DNA of 64,000 nt from Planctomycetaceae bacterium (GTDB lineage: Bacteria; Planctomycetota; Planctomycetia; Pirellulales; Pirellulaceae). Position 1 is the stretch's first letter; every line of letters begins with the position of its first letter. The stretch lies in the NCBI GenBank assembly GCA_024642205.1, contig JAHEBQ010000032.1:1129-65128 (forward strand). The letters are read 5' to 3'. Of this stretch, positions 40,250 to 49,948 are shown one piece after another. The notes beneath the pieces were generated by a model, which worked only from the letters and a program-made list of their open reading frames with translations, was not told the DNA's origin and did no database searches. The translations under genes were made by a program, and so were the position numbers.

Positions 40250-43200
40250 TCAGAATATCTTGTCCTTGGCTTCGTCATCATCTGACAACAGCAAATCTAT
40301 CGCTGCTTTCAGCTTTTGTTCCAGATCGCCGGAACTGCCGACTTTCACAAACGCCACGTTGCCCTCTTGATCAATGATCACGGTTTGAGGAAGTGAATGA
40401 ACATCGAACTGTCGTCCGATTGCTCCCGAGTCCAGCGCGACCGGGATTTTCAAATTACGTGTTTCGAGAAACTCCGAAATCTGATCGGCGTCCTCTTCCT
40501 GATTCACTGCCAGAAATGCAACCTGGTCGGATGGATATTGAGCGATCGTCTGTTCAATTTTCGGCAAAGCCTGAACGCAGGGGCCGCACCAGGTCGCCCA
40601 AAAGTCCAGCACCACGACTTTTCCAAGCTGTGATTGCAGCGAAAACTCTTGACCACCGACCAGCGGAGCCGTAAACGATTTCGGCGTTGTTCCGATCAAC
40701 GGTGAACCGCTGCCAAACGCAAATCCGGATCCTCGGTCGCCATTGGCACCGGTTTCCATTTTCGGTGCCGGCGCCAGCCTGGCAACCCAATCCGAATAGG
40801 GAACATCCGTTGCCTGGCTGGCGAACCTGCCGAACCGAAGCTCGTAGATTTGGTCCATCGGAATTTGACACGTACCCAACGCGTTCGACTTGCCCGTCAG
40901 GTTTTCATCGGTCCACGACGCCAGTGCCAGCGTCATTCGGCGCCCACCTTGCATCAGCACCTGTGCCGTTTGCCCGACCGTTTCCTCGGACGGGTCGGAG
41001 AGTGTCTCGATTTTGACCACCTGCGCGGAATCCGCGGTCGTTTCGCCAGGTTCGTCTGGCGTGGAATCAACCGCGGGTTTCCCGGATTCACTGACGGCAT
41101 CTGCTTCGGTGTCGGCAAGGCCCTCGGCGTGCAACCAGACGATGCTCGTCACAATGTCTCGTGGGAAGCGTTGGACCTGGTGGTTGGCGCGAAACATCAC
41201 GTACTGATCGTCCATGGCAACCAATTCACCGCGAAGCATGTCCATGTTGGTGGCACATAGAATCTGCTTCGGTGGGGTTTTTTTCTTGAGTCGCGGGATC
41301 GTTAACAACAGTTCCTTCCGCTGTGGATCGACGAGGATGCCATTTCCCGAATCGGCAAAATTGAGCTTGAAACCGGAAAGCGTGCACTTGATGTTCTGCT
41401 GATACATGTCAGTAAGTTTGAACTGGACGCCTCGACCTCGATTCGAATTCGAGGGTACTTTTTCCGAGTAGGCATTCTTTCCGTTGACGGTGACAAAAAT
41501 ATTTCCTTCCTGAAATTTGAATGCGAACTTGGCTTTGTTGTTCCTGACCGGGATCATTCCATTGGCAGGATTGGCCTGACCCGGATTGCATACGAAGAGG
41601 TTTTCTCCATACAGCATGATATTGATCTTTTGGCCCCCTTCGGCAGACTCCGCGTCCGTGATCAGGGTCCGGCATTCCAGAACGCCGTAGCTGTTACTAT
41701 TCCAGGCTAGATCAAACTCAAAACCGCCGCTGGAGAACAGCCAGGGATGCCCGAATTCGCCGTTCTTGGATACTTCCATTTTCGTGCCAGCCACTTTGAC
41801 TTTGGCTTTGGAGGCCTCGAGAATGACCCACTCTCTGTCGCTGACCGTCACTTCTTCCCCAAGGGCGATGTTACGAAAGTCGATCGCCTTGACCCGATTC
41901 TGATCAATCTGTTTAATTTCGGTAAACGATTCAATGGTAACGGCACGTTCATCCATGCCGACAATGTGACAGGGGATCGTGTCCCGGTTGGTCAAATACA
42001 GGGTGTCGGCCCATTGATCTGCAACGGCGACGATCGCCTGTTTTTTCTGCAAAACGATCCGCGCGTCGCCGCGGGAAAGCGGAACTGCCGATTCGGCTCC
42101 CGCGACCCGCCATCGCAATATGTCGTCCTTGCCGCCGGTGCCTTTTTCCAGGCGACCCTGGATTTCACCCGCGTTATTGAACAGTCGGTTCGTAAATGAT
42201 TCAGCTCCCATGGCGCTGGATGCCGGTGTATCAAATCGGAGCCGAGTTGCGCCTGTGAGCTTGTACGTGATTGGCTCATTTGCCAATTCGGTCTTCATCG
42301 TGATCGAATCGCCTTCAATGGAAACAAACTCGCCACTGGCGTACATGCCGTCATGGAACTTCAACCTCGTTCGCCCTGCAGGCCGTTGCTTGACGCGGTT
42401 TATCAAGAATGCTCCACAGAACCGGTCAACGGCAACGGTCGTAGGTAATCCCGGTTTACCATCCCTGTCACCGTCCTGGTCTGGCGTTGAAATCACCCAC
42501 TGCGTTCCATCAAAGGACTGAACCGTTCCATTGATGGCAGCTTCGTCGAGCGTCTGGATCGAGGGTTCGGTTGCGTTGAATCCTGTGGCGGACCGCCGGA
42601 TCATCAATGAGGTCATTTTCAAATCTCCCGATTTGTTTTCGATGTAAATCCCGGGATCGATATTGGAAGAGGGCTTTCCCAGGTCCGCCATCGCCAGCCG
42701 CTTCCCTTGTTCGTCATGGATGACCAGTGTGTCAAGTTTGCGATCCCAGTGAATCAGGAACTTCATTCGTTTCGTATCACCATTGCTGGATTCCATCACG
42801 ATTTCAAAATCGTCGTTGAAACTCAGCACGATCGAATCGTCCCATGACTCCAGTCGCGGAAGCGATTCGATCTTGCGCGAATTGCGGGGCACTCCAAATC
42901 CAAACGTGAAATCCAGCTTCTTCTCCCATTCCAGTTCGACTTCGATCAAAGCGGAATCGGGCAGCTCGGTTTTCAGGAATAAATGAACATTGCTTCGCAG
43001 GCTTTCCAATTGCCCCAGTTCGTTAACCTTCCAATATTTTTTTTCGCTGCGATTGGCGTCCCATTTATCCAGATCAAACTCGCCATTGATCAAACTACCG
43101 GAGGTTTTCAGATTGAGAATGGATGCGACTTGAGCACGATCGACATCAATTACACCAAACCTGGGCGACGAGATACTCAATACGCGATCATCCAGTCTTG

Positions 43201-43582
43201 TAATTTCACCGAATAGGCTGAACCCATCGATCGTCTGAATCGAGTAAGTCTCGCTGGTCTTGCTCCACTGGGTCCCGGATTGGAACTGGATCTGGTCAAG
43301 GTAAGCCAGGTCCAGGTTGAGCGGATCTCGAAACAAGCTGGTCTGCCATTTCAAACGGGAACGAGTTCCCGAGACAACATGCCCGGGAAGCTTGTCACCA
43401 TTTTTCCAGGTCAGTTCGCCGTTGAAAGGATCATCCGGGACACGGGATTCCTGTGCGGCAGAACGGTTCGCCGCCAGGCAAACCAGGGCAAGAAAAAACA
43501 TGGCCTGGAACACCTGCCAGGGAAAGTGCCCGCATCGCAAGCGGGTCGAATTTGTCATCGATAAGATCCCGTTTCGTTTCAT
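40250..43582 (-). CDS. Large exported protein with repeated small beta-barrel modules and C-terminal TlpA/thioredoxin domain
   Basis: Signal/TM N-terminus; about 8 copies of a LxxxNGDxLxGxLxxxD...IPxxxIxxIxF-type module; C-terminal GKVVVLDFWATWCGPC...PQTVIIDQEG. Confidence 0.88.
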   Translation of the reverse strand: MKRNGILSMTNSTRLRCGHFPWQVFQAMFFLALVCLAANRSAAQESRVPDDPFNGELTWKNGDKLPGHVVSGTRSRLKWQTSLFRDPLNLDLAYLDQIQFQSGTQWSKTSETYSIQTIDGFSLFGEITRLDDRVLSISSPRFGVIDVDRAQVASILNLKTSGSLINGEFDLDKWDANRSEKKYWKVNELGQLESLRSNVHLFLKTELPDSALIEVELEWEKKLDFTFGFGVPRNSRKIESLPRLESWDDSIVLSFNDDFEIVMESSNGDTKRMKFLIHWDRKLDTLVIHDEQGKRLAMADLGKPSSNIDPGIYIENKSGDLKMTSLMIRRSATGFNATEPSIQTLDEAAINGTVQSFDGTQWVISTPDQDGDRDGKPGLPTTVAVDRFCGAFLINRVKQRPAGRTRLKFHDGMYASGEFVSIEGDSITMKTELANEPITYKLTGATRLRFDTPASSAMGAESFTNRLFNNAGEIQGRLEKGTGGKDDILRWRVAGAESAVPLSRGDARIVLQKKQAIVAVADQWADTLYLTNRDTIPCHIVGMDERAVTIESFTEIKQIDQNRVKAIDFRNIALGEEVTVSDREWVILEASKAKVKVAGTKMEVSKNGEFGHPWLFSSGGFEFDLAWNSNSYGVLECRTLITDAESAEGGQKINIMLYGENLFVCNPGQANPANGMIPVRNNKAKFAFKFQEGNIFVTVNGKNAYSEKVPSNSNRGRGVQFKLTDMYQQNIKCTLSGFKLNFADSGNGILVDPQRKELLLTIPRLKKKTPPKQILCATNMDMLRGELVAMDDQYVMFRANHQVQRFPRDIVTSIVWLHAEGLADTEADAVSESGKPAVDSTPDEPGETTADSAQVVKIETLSDPSEETVGQTAQVLMQGGRRMTLALASWTDENLTGKSNALGTCQIPMDQIYELRFGRFASQATDVPYSDWVARLAPAPKMETGANGDRGSGFAFGSGSPLIGTTPKSFTAPLVGGQEFSLQSQLGKVVVLDFWATWCGPCVQALPKIEQTIAQYPSDQVAFLAVNQEEDADQISEFLETRNLKIPVALDSGAIGRQFDVHSLPQTVIIDQEGNVAFVKVGSSGDLEQKLKAAIDLLLSDDDEAKDKIF

Positions 43583-43817
43583 TACCGCCCCGGTTTTTGT
43601 CCTGTTTTCGATTATCGTTCAACCCGACACTTCAGCTGCATTGACCGGTGGTCAAATGGACCACCGCAAGCCACTGTCGCGAGTAATCCAAACACAATCA
43701 CTGTTTCTGCCAATGGTGTTCTCCCGAAGCGAACCTGGACCGCTGTCTGTTTCATCAGGCTGCGAAAATATTGATATCCGTTTTCGAGATTGTGAAATCT
43801 GTTCCTCCACCGCCCGA

Positions 43818-43837
43818 GGCTGACGCCGGCGGCTCAC
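43818..43837. repeat. REP 20-mer GGCTGACGCCGGCGGCTCAC
   Basis: 19/20 identical to 19766-19785; reverse-complement copy CTGAGCCGTCGGCGTAAGCC at 50333-50352. Confidence 0.75.
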
Positions 43838-43859
43838 GGTGGTTTGCGGCAGATTCCTG

Positions 43860-44930
43860 TCATCGCTCATAAATCGGCAGGAATCGGTAATTCAGCGCCA
43901 TCGCTAACAGCGACATGCTCGTCGAATACGCCGGCCCATGGTCGCTGTTCCCGATCTGACCGTCTTCCGATTGCAGATTGCGTAACTCTTGAATCGTATT
44001 CTGATTCCACTGCTGCCACGATTCATAGTCGGCTTGAAACAGCGCCTGGGCTTTATAATACCGTTCATAGTACGGCCAGCTCTGGTTGGCACTGAGGTCG
44101 AGGTGGTCAGCCAGGTATTTCCGGGTCCCCTCCAGTTCGCCCCAGGACTTGCGTTTCCCAATCGAAAACACCAGGCAGGCAATCGAAGTTCTTGCGCCTG
44201 ACTCGCCCAACCCACCAAGCCCACTGTATCCGACCTCGCCCGATTCGGCAGAAGTCATGGACTTCATGTAGTCGAGCGCGTCGTCAATGGTCTTGTCCGG
44301 AACGTCGATCCCGGCGTTACGAGCCGCCAGCAGTCCCATCAGGACCGCGCCCACCACCGACGTATCTGCCGAACCGTCGTTCGGCGAATATCGCCAGCCC
44401 TTGCTGGGGTTTTTTTTCTGTGACGACACAGCCAGTCGAACGGCCAGTTCCAGGGCCTCGCCAATCGATCGTTGTGCCTCCGATTTTTCTTCACCCGACC
44501 AGAGCATTTCCTCGTCGACGGCTCCATAGGCCTCGGACAAAGCCAACATTGCAAATCCGTGCACGTACATGTTGCCGGGAATATACCCCGTTTGCGCTTT
44601 TTGATTGCGGATGATATAGCGAATCGCGGCTCGCACATTCCGGGCGTAACGACCAAAGTTCGGATCTTCGCCGGTCGACAGAAACGCCATCGTCGCCAAC
44701 GCACAGATTCCACACGCTTCGTCGCCATGAAATTGCTGACCGGCTCCCCAACTCCCATCGGTGCGCTGCGATTTGGCAAGATACTCCGCTCCCTTGAGGT
44801 AAATCGTACTGACTCCCGCAGGAATCCCCGTCCCTTCATGAAGCTCCAGTTGTTCAAGCTGCCCATGGCCAGCCTGGGGGACAAGCCAAAGGACAAGCGA
44901 AGCAAAAACAGTGGGCAGGATTGGTTTCAT
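43860..44930 (-). CDS. Prenyltransferase/squalene-oxidase (PFTB) repeat protein, secreted
   Basis: Signal peptide from ATG 44930; YLAKSQRTDGSW, GNMYVHGFAMLALSEAYG, KGWRYSP, DTSVVGAVLMGLLAARNAG, YYKAQALFQ, QSEDG, FLPIYER. Confidence 0.9.
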   Translation of the reverse strand: MKPILPTVFASLVLWLVPQAGHGQLEQLELHEGTGIPAGVSTIYLKGAEYLAKSQRTDGSWGAGQQFHGDEACGICALATMAFLSTGEDPNFGRYARNVRAAIRYIIRNQKAQTGYIPGNMYVHGFAMLALSEAYGAVDEEMLWSGEEKSEAQRSIGEALELAVRLAVSSQKKNPSKGWRYSPNDGSADTSVVGAVLMGLLAARNAGIDVPDKTIDDALDYMKSMTSAESGEVGYSGLGGLGESGARTSIACLVFSIGKRKSWGELEGTRKYLADHLDLSANQSWPYYERYYKAQALFQADYESWQQWNQNTIQELRNLQSEDGQIGNSDHGPAYSTSMSLLAMALNYRFLPIYER

Positions 44931-45018
44931 GGAAGTCGGAGTTTGCGTGGTCGGAGCTTGCGTGGTCGGTGTTCGGAGTCGGAATGGACCGGGTTTGGTT
45001 CGATCCTCGGACCATTGG

Positions 45019-46056
45019 CTATTTTGCGTAGATATTGAGCAACGCTTTGACCGACCTGGCGATGGTTTCGAGCGCTCGGTCAATCAGCAACAGGAGGTTA
45101 CTTTCCTCGATCGCCACGCCTCCTCGAACAGCGACCCCTTCGTCTTCCATCCCCATCATTTGACCAATTTCTTTCGAGGGCGCGATGAAAATTTTCCATT
45201 TTTGCAATTGCGCAGGCGAAAGGACTTCCTTCAATTTCTTCGAATCTGCCTGGGAAGCGTAATAATACAGCACGAACGGTTCGTAAAACGTGAAACAGGA
45301 AATTTCCGCTTTCTCCATCGGCGGCCGGATGATTTCCGCCAGTTTGATCCGTTGCTCGCCAGTCAGTCCAAGTTCAATGGTCAGCGAACCCATCGCCGAA
45401 TCGATCAACGCGTTTCGCTTGGCGGCTTTGCGATCCTGTCTATACTCTCGGAATTTCTCCAACTGGGCGTCGGTCAAGACATTGCGAAGGGTTGATTGCC
45501 AAAACCGGTGATCCAGCGGATCGTCGAATTTGAACGGATTTCCCATTCCATTCATCATGATCATCTGCAGCGTGTTCTGATCGATCTCGTCCGCGTCGTT
45601 GATCTGGATTTCTTCCTCTTCCGCTGTATCTGATTCGTCATCGACCTGTCCACCCTGCTGGACAAGCCCCCTCTGTTGGCTCGTCTGCTTGTTCCATTCA
45701 GCCGTCAATTTCTTGACAGCGCCTTTGGCACCGATCCGCAGTTTGGTGATCTGTTTTTTGTCCAGCTTGCAAATGTTTTGAATCTCTTCGACTTCCACCA
45801 GGAAAATCTGGGTCAATTGAAATCGCTTGGCCGCCATCATCCGGCGGGCTTCCATGCCGGGGAGGCCGACAACTTGCACCGCCATAACGGCTTCTGCCTC
45901 CTCGACGACCTCGTCCTGAATTTCCGAGGCGACGCCCGGTTCGACGTCTTGCGCCAATGAGAATATTGGCATCCCTGAGCCGCTTACCGCGGCGAACAAG
46001 CAGATCAAGGTCGAGAAACCGGTTCGTCGGGTAATGTCTTGAATTAAGAACGACAT
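45019..46056 (-). CDS. Secreted acidic/helical hypothetical protein with LTXXQ-like motifs
   Basis: AAAGGA RBS; signal-like N-terminus; LDKKQITKL, VLTDAQLEKF, LGLTGEQRIKL, VLSPAQLQKW. Confidence 0.75.
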   Translation of the reverse strand: MSFLIQDITRRTGFSTLICLFAAVSGSGMPIFSLAQDVEPGVASEIQDEVVEEAEAVMAVQVVGLPGMEARRMMAAKRFQLTQIFLVEVEEIQNICKLDKKQITKLRIGAKGAVKKLTAEWNKQTSQQRGLVQQGGQVDDESDTAEEEEIQINDADEIDQNTLQMIMMNGMGNPFKFDDPLDHRFWQSTLRNVLTDAQLEKFREYRQDRKAAKRNALIDSAMGSLTIELGLTGEQRIKLAEIIRPPMEKAEISCFTFYEPFVLYYYASQADSKKLKEVLSPAQLQKWKIFIAPSKEIGQMMGMEDEGVAVRGGVAIEESNLLLLIDRALETIARSVKALLNIYAK

Positions 46057-46265
46057 CCGTTTTCCTTTGTGGCGTGATTCGTAGTGTTCTGTCTCAGCCA
46101 GGAATACAGGTCGGTCGTCGTGGACGAGGCTACGAGTCCTGGCGTTTGCTTGATCAAAAGGTCTTACGACCTCATCCACAACCCAAAAATCAAATCTTGT
46201 CGCGTCAAGAGACGTAAGCCGCGTGCGCTATTCTCTTGAGCCTGGTGATTTTGGAAGCGACTCTC

Positions 46266-46636: not shown

Positions 46637-49600
46637 TTACTTGCTCGGCTCCTGCTCGACGTTTCCTTCCAACGCTTCGAAATAGCGATCCAAACCGGTG
46701 CGGAACTCTTCGGGGAGCTCGCGGCCCGATTTGCCGGTTGCCTGATTCGTTTCGCGCTCGACAACATTGGCCTGTTTTTCTTGCGAATCACCCAGCAGTG
46801 CCAATGCCGACGCTGTGTAATTGGCACCCGATCGACTGCCGCCGCCCGGATCCGATCCTCCACCGCCGCTACCACTGCCGGCTCGTTTGGCCCTCAGCAG
46901 CCACTCGATCGCGTCGGTCTCGGCAGCAATTGCAGGTGCCCCGGTGTCGAAGCCCGCCAGGATTTCTTCGGCGTCATCCATCGCTTTGGCGGCGTTGGTC
47001 AACTGCGCGATCTCTTTGGCAAATTTCTGTTCGCCTTCAGGCAGTTCGTAAATTTTCTCAATCACCTCTGTCGTACGATTGGCCAGCTCTGCCTGGGTAA
47101 TCGAAAGTTCATCTGCCGAAGCATTGAACTTTTCATTTTTCATTTGGGATCTGGCTTGTTCCAAGCCGCGGGTTTCTTCCCGCAACGAAATCTCTGCGGT
47201 CAAGATTTTCATCACTTCCAACACCAGCGAGGGTGGCAAACTGCCACCTTTTGAGCCCGGTCACGAGCCCCCCTTTCAGCCAGGGCCGACCAGCTGTTCC
47301 GCCCAGCGGTCAAGAGTATCGGCCAGGAATTCCGAATGGGCAATCGACGTTCCCGGTTCGTTTGCGACCATCCGATCAGCCACCACGTTGACTTGCTTGA
47401 CCACCTCGATCTCACGCATTTCGGCGAGCACTGTTTTGAATTTTCCTTCCTGGATACGGTTGGAATACGCCTCCAGGTCGTCTTCGATATGCTGCAACGT
47501 CTGGCCGTGCGCCTTTTGCCGATCAGCCAACAGACTCATGCGTTCCACGGTCGCAGCTTTCAGTTCCGAGTGACGGGCACCAAAACCGGTCAACGTCGAC
47601 TGGTTGACGTCATTGGCGATCACGAGCTCGCGTCGCGACATCGCTTTGAGCCGTTTGACAAACGTGCTTCCTTCGAGATTGGCGATCAACTTTTGAAGTT
47701 CTTCGGCAACTTTCTGGAATTCCGCCAACAACGCTTCCTGCGACTCGATGGCCTGGTCCATCTGCTGGCCCGCCGGGCACGAACCGCCCCCCTGTCCCGG
47801 TGAGTTGTCCGCCAACACCACAGCCGGCAACGTGAATTTTGAGGCCTTGGGGGCTGAAGGTTCGGCAGCTTCGTCGCCCGGCTGTTTGTCGTCTGGTTGA
47901 TCCATCGATGATTCCTTCATCGAGATCGAAGGGGGTTTTTCATTTTCGTCCGGTCCGTTGGCACCCGGTTTCGACTTCGGCGGCTGCTGGCCGGGGATCG
48001 AGGGGTTATCGGAGACCGATTTGGACGGCGATCGGGAATTTTGTTCCGCAGGGCCAGCCGACGCCGCGGCCTCGGAGGCCTTCTTCAGGAGGTCGGACAC
48101 CGAGGGCATCCGGTTCTCATGGATATCGTTCAAACTCTGGATCATCTCAGCCAGTTTTTCCAGATGGTCGACGCCGAAATTCTCGTTGCGAGCCGCTTCC
48201 TTGATCAGTTGTTCTCCCGCATCGGTCAGCGCACTGAGACGGCGAGCCTGGGCACGTTCCGCCGCGGCTTGAGATTCAATTTTGCGACGCGTCTCCGGGC
48301 GATCCAATTCGTCGGGTGGCAAGTTCCGCAGTTCAACGTTCTGTTTGTACAGCTGCTGCTCCTGCTCGTAAGTTTCGAGCGATTGCTTGAACCAATCGTT
48401 CAGCCGCCGCGTCATCCAGATCGCATGCTCGTCTTCACTCAGAACGTAGACAGTGTATGGCTGCGAATAGACCCGCTCGCGATCCGGGAGGTAGTCTTCG
48501 GCGAACAATCTCAGTTGAATGGTTTGCGGTGCGATTTTTTCGCGCTGCGGAGAAAACGTGGCAGTGATCGCGTTGACCTCCGTGGCTTCCGGGTTTCCGG
48601 CATATACGATTTTGTCACCCTGGGCCGGTTCATCGGCGGATGTTGCTGCCGGTTTGCCCGTCCATTCCATTCCAATTGTTTTCACACCGTAATCGTCTGA
48701 TGCCTCAACTTCGAATGACAGTACATCGTTGACCATCACCACGCGTTGTTGTTCCAGCTCGCGACAGACCAGCGATGGGGCCTCATCTTCGGCCGACCGA
48801 ATTTTGAGTTTCAACGGTGACTTGGCGGTCAAACCCAGTGCATCCCGCCAGGCGAGCTCCAGCGTCCTGGTTTCCGACAACAGAACCGGGTTGGTCACGA
48901 TCGTTTCGCCACTGACGTTCACCGATTCCCCATCGACGGTCGCGGACGTCAGCGTCCGCGTCGCGGTCGCTTCAATCGCGATTTTGCTGCCGCCGACGAC
49001 CGACATCCCGCCTCCGCGAAGCTCGCGCCGAACCGGTGTCGTCCGTTGCAGGTAATCGGGCAGCGTGATCAATGCTGCCAGGGATGCGAGTTCTGGTCGC
49101 GGCTGAGGATCGATCTGAACGTTCTCCAGCACATCGCCGATTCGCAGTTTGACCTGGGCTGGCGATTTGAACGGGGGTAAGTCAAATTTGTAATGGCGGT
49201 CGTTGAGTTTCGAATCAACTCGGTGGCTTCCAATCCAGGCTGACCCTGAATCGGGATTCCATCGGGACGATTCGGTGAGTTTTGCGTCAAGCTCGATTTG
49301 TTCGGCCAGCGGAACAATCATTTTCTCCGGCAGTGTGTCGACTTGCGTAAACGTATACCGGTCAATGCTCTTCCAGGGCATGATCCAGCGCTGCAGCGCA
49401 TTGGATCCGGCAGCGGGAACTACCAACAGGGCCGCGGCAGATAGTGCCAATGGCACGCCCGCGATCAAGGCCCATCGACGATGGCGCGGGTGCGGGACAT
49501 CATGGAGGAAGTCCTTGTCTGCGGTTTCACGATCGGCTTGGGCGAGCGCCGCCCGGCACAGGGATTCGCTACTGCCATCCAGGTTCTGGGTATTGACCAG

Positions 49601-49948
49601 TTCGATGATGCCCAGCAGGTAATCGCCCAGTCGCGGATGCTTGACTTTGAGCATTCTGGCAACCTGTTCCAGCCGACGGCTGTTCCAGATCCAGCGATGG
49701 CAGACCAACGGAAACCAGACCGCCAGCCCGATGGCCCCGGTTAACAGAATCGCCCAGCGAAGCCAACCGCCGGTATCATAGACTCGGTCGAGGGCAAACA
49801 CCACGAGGTAGGAAACCAGCAACCCGAACGCCGCGGCGCAGAGTCCTTCGGCCAGCTTGACCATCCAGATTCGTCGCTGGAATTTCTCCAATTTGAATCG
49901 AATGCGTTCGGGAATCTGAAGTCCCGGCTTTCCTGCAATTTGGCTCAT
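46637..49948 (-). CDS. DUF4175-like membrane-anchored coiled-coil protein with two in-frame UGA codons; candidate selenoprotein (U891, U896), 1103 aa
   Basis: ORFs 47276..49948 and 46637..47239 are the same frame: GAA CAG CTG GTC GGC CCT GGC TGA AAG GGG GGC TCG TGA CCG GGC TCA AAA GGT GGC AGT TTG CCA CCC; no other stop in 3312 nt; three N-terminal TM helices, Ig-like middle, coiled-coil C-terminus. Confidence 0.8.
47232..47248 (-). promoter_or_regulatory. Putative bacterial SECIS stem-loop
   Basis: mRNA GGUGGCA-GUU-UGCCACC: perfect 7-bp stem, loop starting with GU, stem begins 12 nt after the second UGA; loop is 19 nt from UGA2 and 34 nt from UGA1. Confidence 0.7.

Follow-up and report, generated by a model that had tools for sequence, protein, structure and literature searches.

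A conserved SECIS-like hairpin predicted to serve two closely spaced UGA codons in a planctomycete selenoprotein gene

Introduction

Decoding of selenocysteine (Sec) in bacteria is taught as an arrangement of one selenocysteine insertion sequence (SECIS) right after each UGA, at a nearly fixed distance. Here, we describe a gene for a large membrane-anchored protein in which two in-frame UGA codons are followed by a single conserved hairpin of the SECIS type. The gene lies in a stretch of 64,000 nucleotides (nt) from a Planctomycetaceae bacterium (assembly GCA_024642205.1, contig JAHEBQ010000032.1, positions 1,129 to 65,128), referred to as the window; all coordinates below are those of the window unless a contig is named. 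A first-pass annotation made from the letters of the window had pointed to two stacked hairpins around the UGAs and proposed either that one SECIS serves both codons or that the first hairpin is a second, nested SECIS.

Results

A 1103-codon gene interrupted by two UGA codons

On the minus strand, two open reading frames (ORFs) of 890 and 200 amino acids form one gene of 1103 codons (46637..49948), whose sole interruptions are two UGA codons that we call UGA1 and UGA2. The 890-residue ORF (47276..49948, minus strand) stops at the TGA at 47278-47276, a second in-frame TGA follows four codons on at 47263-47261, and the frame then remains open for 207 more codons, to 46637. Read through, the product has 1103 residues and the motif ...DRWAEQLVGPG-U-KGGS-U-PGSKGGSLPPS..., in which UGA1 (47276..47278, minus strand) would encode residue 891 and UGA2 (47261..47263, minus strand) residue 896. 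The unity of the gene is supported by the single frame, by a structural model and by homologues of the same length: a protein search returned 120 full-length homologues of about 1100 residues from Planctomycetota and Verrucomicrobiota. In alignments, both UGAs fall on a conserved Cys pair of these homologues (for example, GPGCKGGKCPGG in the closest full-length relative), UGA1 on the first Cys of the CxxxxC pair and UGA2 on the second, which is also the sole Sec position in orthologues with one Sec.

The AlphaFold2 model (pLDDT 81.5) contains N-terminal transmembrane helices, three immunoglobulin-like beta domains and long helical bundles, and it places the U-x4-U loop at a flexible tip joining helices 865-887 and 906-935. 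A fold search with this model gave generic immunoglobulin-like matches only and no lead on function. The Sec protein had no Pfam match at E <= 0.1 and no NCBIfam match; the Pfam model for DUF4175 was likewise unmatched, that name being a UniRef label on one homologue (P0075) only.

The genome encodes the machinery for Sec. A tRNA-Sec was found by ARAGORN and by Rfam (66.7 bits against a cut-off of 47), selB and selA were recovered at 380 and 575 bits, and selD carries an in-frame UGA of its own. The gene therefore has what identifies a selenoprotein gene, namely UGAs opposite Cys, an ORF that continues past them and Sec machinery in the same genome, and UGA1 and UGA2 are both almost certainly Sec codons. 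In five other genes of the genome, a Pfam match extends across an in-frame UGA, the match of the thioredoxin-like one lying below the Pfam cut-off. Together with the machinery, these five genes indicate that Sec decoding is active in the organism.

Distribution of the two-UGA form

Orthologues were present in 106 of 401 genomes from the same order. Exactly one in-frame TGA occurs in 14 of the 106, in each case in place of the second Cys and after loss of the first, and among these 106 only the window's gene has two UGAs. When the DNA of a single genome from each species was scanned for the pattern WAEQLVGPG-U-x(4-5)-U-PG...GSLPP, 19 further species were found to have the two-Sec (di-Sec) form, from Pirellulaceae, Mariniblastus and metagenome-assembled genomes (MAGs) of Planctomycetaceae. 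Because this pattern demanded the core of the downstream hairpin (hairpin 2), a second scan was made of metagenomes that demanded WAEQLVGPG plus TGA only and ignored the hairpins; 10 of the 11 loci found have a second UGA, and the remaining one has UUA (Leu). A protein search with the N-terminal ORF added 113 new clusters at 90% identity, 104 of which end exactly at ...LVGPG, where gene callers stop at UGA1. Other ends include four of the type GPGCP(S)GG[TS] (C...U forms) and four x...U forms.

Identity between these relatives and the protein of the window is 45-73%, and where residues are identical, the codons differ in 48-63% of cases. The shared UGAs are therefore held by selection and not by recent common descent. 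In the 19 genomes and the metagenome loci alike, four or five codons are kept in frame between the UGAs as xGGS/T, and insertions and deletions there comprise whole codons.

Two individual cases were found along the way. One metagenome locus (L158, contig Ga0163179_10001537) keeps UGA1 and both hairpins with UUA (Leu) in place of UGA2; if this variant is real, decoding of UGA1 is possible even where no second Sec codon follows. In a Mariniblastus MAG, two contigs (L089 and L106) carry di-Sec paralogues, with five and four residues between the UGAs, respectively.

Two hairpins follow UGA1

In the minus-strand mRNA, the region reads GGC CCU GGC UGA AAG GGG GGC UCG UGA CCG GGC UCA AAA GGU GGC AGU UUG CCA CCC. 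Hairpin 1 (GGGCUCG-UGAC-CGGGCUC; minus strand, 47270-47264, loop 47263-47260, 47259-47253) begins 5 nt past UGA1 and has seven base pairs (bp), two of them G.U, with UGA2 in its loop. An AAAA linker (47249..47252, minus strand), unpaired by inspection and in RNAfold, separates it from hairpin 2; the Lys codon of the linker is AAA in 9 of 11 sequences. Hairpin 2 (GGUGGCA-GUU-UGCCACC; minus strand, 47248-47242, loop 47241-47239, 47238-47232) is a stem of seven perfect bp that starts 12 nt past UGA2, so that its loop lies 19 nt past UGA2 and 34 nt past UGA1. The first-pass annotation had described these positions, stems, loops and spacings (12, 19 and 34 nt) exactly, including the two G-U pairs of hairpin 1 and the G at the second position of its loop.

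Both hairpins are contained in the minimum-energy structure given by RNAfold, the check that had been proposed for them. Folded separately, hairpins 1 and 2 have energies of -8.4 and -10.5 kcal/mol. When the 4 nt after UGA1 were excluded to mimic the ribosome, probabilities were 0.94-0.97 for the outermost and innermost pairs of hairpin 1 and the outermost pair of hairpin 2, and 0.66 for the A-U pair that closes the loop of hairpin 2. An Rfam scan of 47100-47400 returned noise (snoRNA, miRNA) and no SECIS family.

Hairpin 2 has the properties of a SECIS

The bacterial SECIS model, as given in PMC13188914, comprises an apical loop of 3-9 nt, an upper stem of 4-16 bp, a minimum free energy of -7.5 kcal/mol or lower, a G at loop position 1 or 2 that usually has G or U after it, and a distance of 16-37 nt from UGA to loop. 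Hairpin 2 passes all of these rules for both UGAs, with its 3-nt GUU loop, 7 bp, distances of 19 and 34 nt and energy of -10.5 kcal/mol, which bears out the earlier claim that one SECIS lies in range of both. The model has one UGA per element, whereas hairpin 2 is in range of two.

A closer comparison is available in the minimal SECIS of Escherichia coli fdhF, whose stem-loop had been said to start 11 nt past UGA. A check of 5,413 genomes agreed, giving UGA, 11 nt and then GGUUGCA-GGUC-UGCACC. Both elements are 17-nt hairpins, and the loop G and U stand at positions 23 and 24 in fdhF and, counted from the U of UGA2, in the window (38 and 39 from UGA1). The spacer is 12 nt in the window and 11 nt in fdhF. 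Unlike fdhF, hairpin 2 has a perfect stem without the bulged U17, a loop of 3 instead of 4 nt and a second UGA 15 nt further upstream.

Conservation of hairpin 2 follows the presence of Sec: every orthologue with Sec has the hairpin, and Cys orthologues lack it. GGC AGU UUG CC is found in 14 of the 14 single-Sec genes from the protein search, whereas Cys orthologues encode the same Gly-Ser-Leu-Pro residues with AGC CUG, AGC UUG or other codons. The helix is 90.5% paired in 25 Sec genes sampled without bias, compared with 52.8% for the same columns in 23 Cys genes. Double-sided changes occur at three pairs in the 25 Sec genes, where the covariation score exceeded those of all 500 shuffles and all slid registers. 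For example, a C-G pair has become U-A through two synonymous changes in L150 (GGCGGUA-GUU-UACCGCC), and a G-C pair has become A-U in L156 (GGCGACA-GUU-UGUCGCC), where Asp replaces Gly and Ser replaces Pro. The apex A-GUU-U is invariant in Sec genes, with a GUU loop in 25 of 25 in the unbiased sample, and six Cys-Cys relatives of the same GPGC subclade lack hairpin 2 and the other constraints of di-Sec genes. The first-pass annotation had named equal conservation in Cys homologues as the finding that would count against its hairpins; for hairpin 2 the Sec and Cys genes differ sharply. On this comparative evidence, hairpin 2 is a genuine SECIS and a predicted SelB site.

Synonymous divergence agrees with selection on the RNA: the lowest-divergence 20-codon segment among 390 aligned codons is exactly GPG-U...PP, at 0.30 against a median of 0.60, or 0.38 without the core that the scan pattern had fixed. 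Some single-Sec genes also offer a longer stem, GGGCGGCAAA/UUUGCCGCCC; as this stem is disrupted in L051, L055 and all di-Sec genes, the short GUU hairpin is preferred. The idea that di-Sec genes drew the SECIS one codon nearer (19 instead of 22 nt) was also dropped, as single-Sec genes of the same subclade have it at 19 nt too.

Codons upstream of UGA1

The three codons 5' of UGA1, GGC CCU GGC (47279..47287, minus strand), show synonymous constraint in di-Sec genes only. They are nearly universal there, with Pro encoded by CCU in 16 of 20 and CCC in 4 of 20, and by one or the other in nearly all of 29 sequences, whereas Pro is most often CCG in these genes overall; the central pair is kept in 27 of 29 di-Sec sequences. 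Cys-Cys relatives vary freely at these codons, and C...U forms are mixed. RNAalifold prefers a pairing other than hairpin 1 here, CCUGG/CCGGG. Such a pairing cannot act in decoding, because its 5' arm is within the ribosome when UGA1 is decoded. The constraint could possibly reflect the CCUGG/CCGGG pairing as such, or a P- or E-site tRNA context in which termination at UGA1 is less efficient. Translational bypass, with take-off at the Gly codon that precedes UGA1 and landing at the one that follows UGA2, was rejected, since the two codons do not match within a sequence (GGA and GGC in L065; GGC and GGA in L112).

Hairpin 1 is enriched in di-Sec genes and differs from a SECIS

The proposal that hairpin 1 is a second, nested SECIS is not supported: hairpin 1 fails the rules for spacing and loop, its changes do not covary, and some members of the di-Sec clade do not have it. 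Its loop lies 12 nt past UGA1 (15 nt in forms with five residues between the UGAs), in both cases below the 16-nt minimum, and in the loop UGAC the G is followed by A and not by G or U. The loop also varies by lineage (UGAC, GACC, UGAAAG), whereas the GUU of hairpin 2 is constant. The six other SECIS-like hairpins found in the genome by these scans have loops AGUU, AGUU, GUU, GGUCU, CGUGA and AGGUC, with GU within the first three positions, a regularity that is partly circular for five of the six, found by a scan that demanded GU; the hairpin of selD was found independently.

Nor, on the other hand, is hairpin 1 plainly a matter of chance. A hairpin of -6 kcal/mol or lower surrounds the second Cys/Sec codon in 22 of 30 di-Sec genes, compared with 4 of 23 single-Sec genes and 5 of 28 Cys genes. 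In the window it is stabler than 98% of synonymous recodings (p = 0.019), and about 12 of the 30 di-Sec genes reach p <= 0.02. Lineages with other peptides (L081, L088, L120 and L157) re-form a hairpin in a different register, such as GGGUCCU-GACC-GGGAUCC in L081 and UGGGACCU-GAAA-GGGUUCCA in L157. The subgroup with URGGT-U-PGGPGG lacks hairpin 1 and has ACCGGG-AGGU-CCCGGU (-7.7 to -9.9 kcal/mol) directly past UGA2. Judged by its codons, hairpin 1, which is GC-rich and made up of Gly, Ser and Pro codons, is selected as RNA in most di-Sec genes; it is probably not a second SECIS or SelB site and would instead be an auxiliary hairpin, acting as a spacer or in pausing.

Discussion

Our results favour, with a probability of about 0.6, a model in which one SECIS, hairpin 2, serves both UGAs of a real di-Sec gene (...GPG-U-KGGS-U-PGSKGGSLPP...), with hairpin 1 as a possible helper. 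The gene is continuous, its Sec codons pair with Cys, the genome has the machinery, and the SECIS is conserved and covaries specifically in Sec genes. From these observations we infer the use of a single SECIS for both codons, as well as any role for hairpin 1: only hairpin 2 behaves like a conserved insertion signal, so this signal probably serves both.

When UGA1 occupies the A site, only about four further nucleotides must be single-stranded in the mRNA tunnel of the ribosome. Hairpin 2 probably recruits SelB with Sec-tRNA at this stage, with hairpin 1 still folded at the mRNA entrance, and would recruit SelB again five codons later, once the ribosome had melted hairpin 1. Its distance from UGA2 is the canonical one, and its distance from UGA1, 34 nt, is towards the upper end of what is permitted. 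By compacting the 27-nt spacer to 5 + 4 unpaired nt and one helix width, an estimated 12 nt-equivalents or so, hairpin 1 may give UGA1 the same effective distance as the 12 nt that separate UGA2 from hairpin 2 after melting. Alternatively, hairpin 1 might slow the ribosome between the UGAs and give SelB time to reload. A parallel is offered by selD in this genome (L165, contig C148:34050-34976): its SECIS-like hairpin UCGCAC-AGGUC-GUGCGA has the loop 31 nt past the UGA, indicating that the genome tolerates such distances, and a small hairpin, CGCC-GGA-GGCG, lies between the two, a two-hairpin layout like that of the Sec gene. A fuller version of the model, in which one SECIS is read twice with a folded spacer hairpin as distance adaptor, placing Sec at codons 15-18 nt apart and so forming, in a family of large envelope proteins from more than 100 planctomycete lineages, a UxxxxU loop that holds a diselenide or binds metal, is tentative, and we consider it well short of an even chance.

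Several observations weigh against the use of hairpin 2 for both codons with help from hairpin 1. The fold energy of the region is no better than that of dinucleotide shuffles (z -0.22), and the stability of hairpin 2 is largely a by-product of its GGSLPP peptide: codons for Gly (GGN) can pair with those for Pro (CCN), so GGSLPP folds almost as well under random synonymous codons, with recodings averaging -7.6 kcal/mol and p ~0.15 for the hairpin 2 region. The case that the hairpins exceed chance is therefore one made by the relatives and not by energy. Even there, the invariance of the hairpin 2 core across the 19 genome loci is circular, because the scan pattern demanded that core. Spacing between UGA and SECIS in E. 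coli has reportedly been described, in a review, as fixed at 11 nt, so a 27-nt spacer is not obviously functional. For hairpin 1, register A is 80.5% paired with one-sided changes only and no compensatory ones; 8 of 30 di-Sec genes have the hairpin in weak form or not at all (six without any stem of at least 4 bp), and in some it is shifted in register; hairpins around the Sec codon are also seen in some genes that lack UGA1 (L166, L168, L073 and L171); and the enrichment in di-Sec genes, at a Fisher p of 1e-6, is uncorrected for phylogeny.

One alternative differs from the favoured model only over hairpin 1, which may be a functionless by-product of the quasi-palindromic, GC-rich Gly-Ser/Pro-Gly-Ser codons (GGN UCN ... 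CCN GGN UCN), leaving everything to hairpin 2. In its favour, GGN and CCN are complementary and recoded peptides still fold at about -4.5 kcal/mol, and the hairpin shows no covariation, is absent from 8 of 30 di-Sec genes, is present in 9 of 51 genes without UGA1 and loses out to CCUGG/CCGGG in RNAalifold. Against it, hairpin 1 is stabler than 98% of its recodings, with about 12 of 30 genes at p <= 0.02, coincides with the lowest synonymous divergence, is enriched at 73% versus 17-18% and is restored in another register in four lineages (L081, L088, L120 and L157). We regard this alternative as possible but doubtful. A much less probable one assigns a SECIS to each codon, with hairpin 2 for UGA2 and either hairpin 1 or, in the URGGT-U-PGGPGG subgroup, ACCGGG-AGGU-CCCGGU for UGA1. 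Hairpin 1 does have a 4-nt loop with G second, a 7-bp stem, an energy of -8.4 kcal/mol and its di-Sec enrichment; opening of its closing G-C pair would give a loop GUGACC that starts with GU, and the AGGU loop of the subgroup, 20 nt past UGA1, is SECIS-like in position and sequence. What makes us think this reading very unlikely is that the hairpin 1 loop, at 12 or 15 nt, falls short of the 16-nt minimum, that the loops differ by lineage (UGAC, GACC, UGAAAG, AGGU) where GUU is invariant, that double compensatory changes are absent and that comparable hairpins occur in L166 and L168, genes without UGA1.

A different challenge concerns UGA1 itself, which might not, or not mainly, encode Sec: it could be a leaky or selenium-dependent terminator yielding an 890-residue product, or be read by a near-cognate tRNA (Trp or Cys), with SelB decoding UGA2 only. 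UGA1 indeed lies outside the range at which the loop G of the genome's other SECIS-like hairpins is found (23-30 from the U of UGA; about 37 in selD), single-Sec orthologues have Sec only at the UGA2 position, and L158 keeps UGA1 with Leu at the second position. Against this stand the conserved Cys aligned with UGA1, the retention of UGA1 in more than 100 clusters although synonymous sites are saturated, the four or five intervening codons that stay in frame through whole-codon insertions and deletions, the conservation of the downstream 200 codons, which are fused to the rest in all Cys homologues, and the di-Sec-specific constraint on the codons 5' of UGA1. On balance, we judge a non-Sec UGA1 to be improbable, if somewhat less so than a separate SECIS for each codon.

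Close pairs of Sec codons have precedents in bacteria. A UxU rhodanese is known from the Olavius delta1 symbiont (PMC1976440) and a UxxU Prx-like 2 from Global Ocean Sampling (GOS) data (PMC2398784); there too, two Sec replace a Cys pair and presumably share one downstream hairpin. The first-pass annotation had called the arrangement at this locus unusual for bacteria, which needs qualification in view of these published pairs; a separation of 15-18 nt served by one SECIS is wider than in them. Unlike them, the window's family has UxxxxU or UxxxxxU in a large envelope protein without a Pfam or NCBIfam entry, and since its UGAs are 15-18 nt apart, both cannot be at the canonical distance. Eukaryotic SelL (a UxxU diselenide) and SelP (many UGAs with two SECIS in the 3' untranslated region) resemble it in having more UGAs than SECIS and in the possible diselenide or metal-binding Sec pair. 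In contrast to the eukaryotic element, which acts from the 3' untranslated region with SBP2 and eEFSec, that of the window is part of the coding sequence, and how far it lies from the ribosome is important. In a 2026 review (PMC13188914), a term search for multiple Sec found archaeal FrhD/VhuD only, and neither Planctomycetes nor DUF4175 is mentioned in this review or in the BSepDB paper. By sequence criteria, hairpin 2 is an ordinary bacterial SECIS. The selenoprotein family to which it belongs is unlisted, and the two UGAs that it probably serves are too distant for a shared canonical geometry.

The family is widespread and selected, and its SECIS has textbook spacing to one UGA but is 15-18 nt too distant for the other, making it a natural test bed. 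Questions that it could help to answer are which spacings SelB accepts, whether structure shortens the effective distance and how fast SelB reloads on one hairpin. It also represents an unlisted selenoprotein family that gene callers have split into pieces of 890 and 200 residues, as seen in more than 100 database clusters, and that may provide the envelope of planctomycetes with a diselenide or a metal site.

Other UGA-containing and neighbouring genes

The five other candidate selenoprotein genes of the genome, each with an in-frame UGA, comprise an AhpC/TSA-like gene, a rhodanese, an AhpD/CMD-like gene, a peroxiredoxin (the second AhpC/TSA gene) and the weak thioredoxin-like one. Their sites are C6:15864(+), C47:5685(+), C115:24801(+), C126:31043(-) and C149:15979(-), with offsets of minus-strand genome sites counted on the reverse-complemented contig, and their SECIS-like loops are AGUU, AGUU, GGUCU, CGUGA and GUU. 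They came from a loose, noisy genome-wide SECIS scan as candidates with a Pfam match spanning the UGA; a scan of the whole genome for close UGA pairs gave 715 mechanical matches, none usable. On the minus strand of contig C24 (UGA offset 61460), an ORF of 455 residues without a Pfam family has an in-frame UGA in the Gly-rich stretch EKSGGGG-U-GGGSCEG, followed by a CUCGGC-GGUCU-GCCGGG hairpin, and may encode one more unlisted protein with a Sec/Cys loop.

Downstream of the Sec gene, three genes lie in the same orientation (40250-46179, minus strand). They encode a 386-residue protein without a family, a 407-residue protein with a weak DUF6288 match and a 1110-residue protein with a C-terminal redoxin/AhpC-TSA/thioredoxin domain. 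This last domain is consistent with, and no proof of, a function of the Sec pair in redox or metal chemistry, and these genes may form a redox envelope module.

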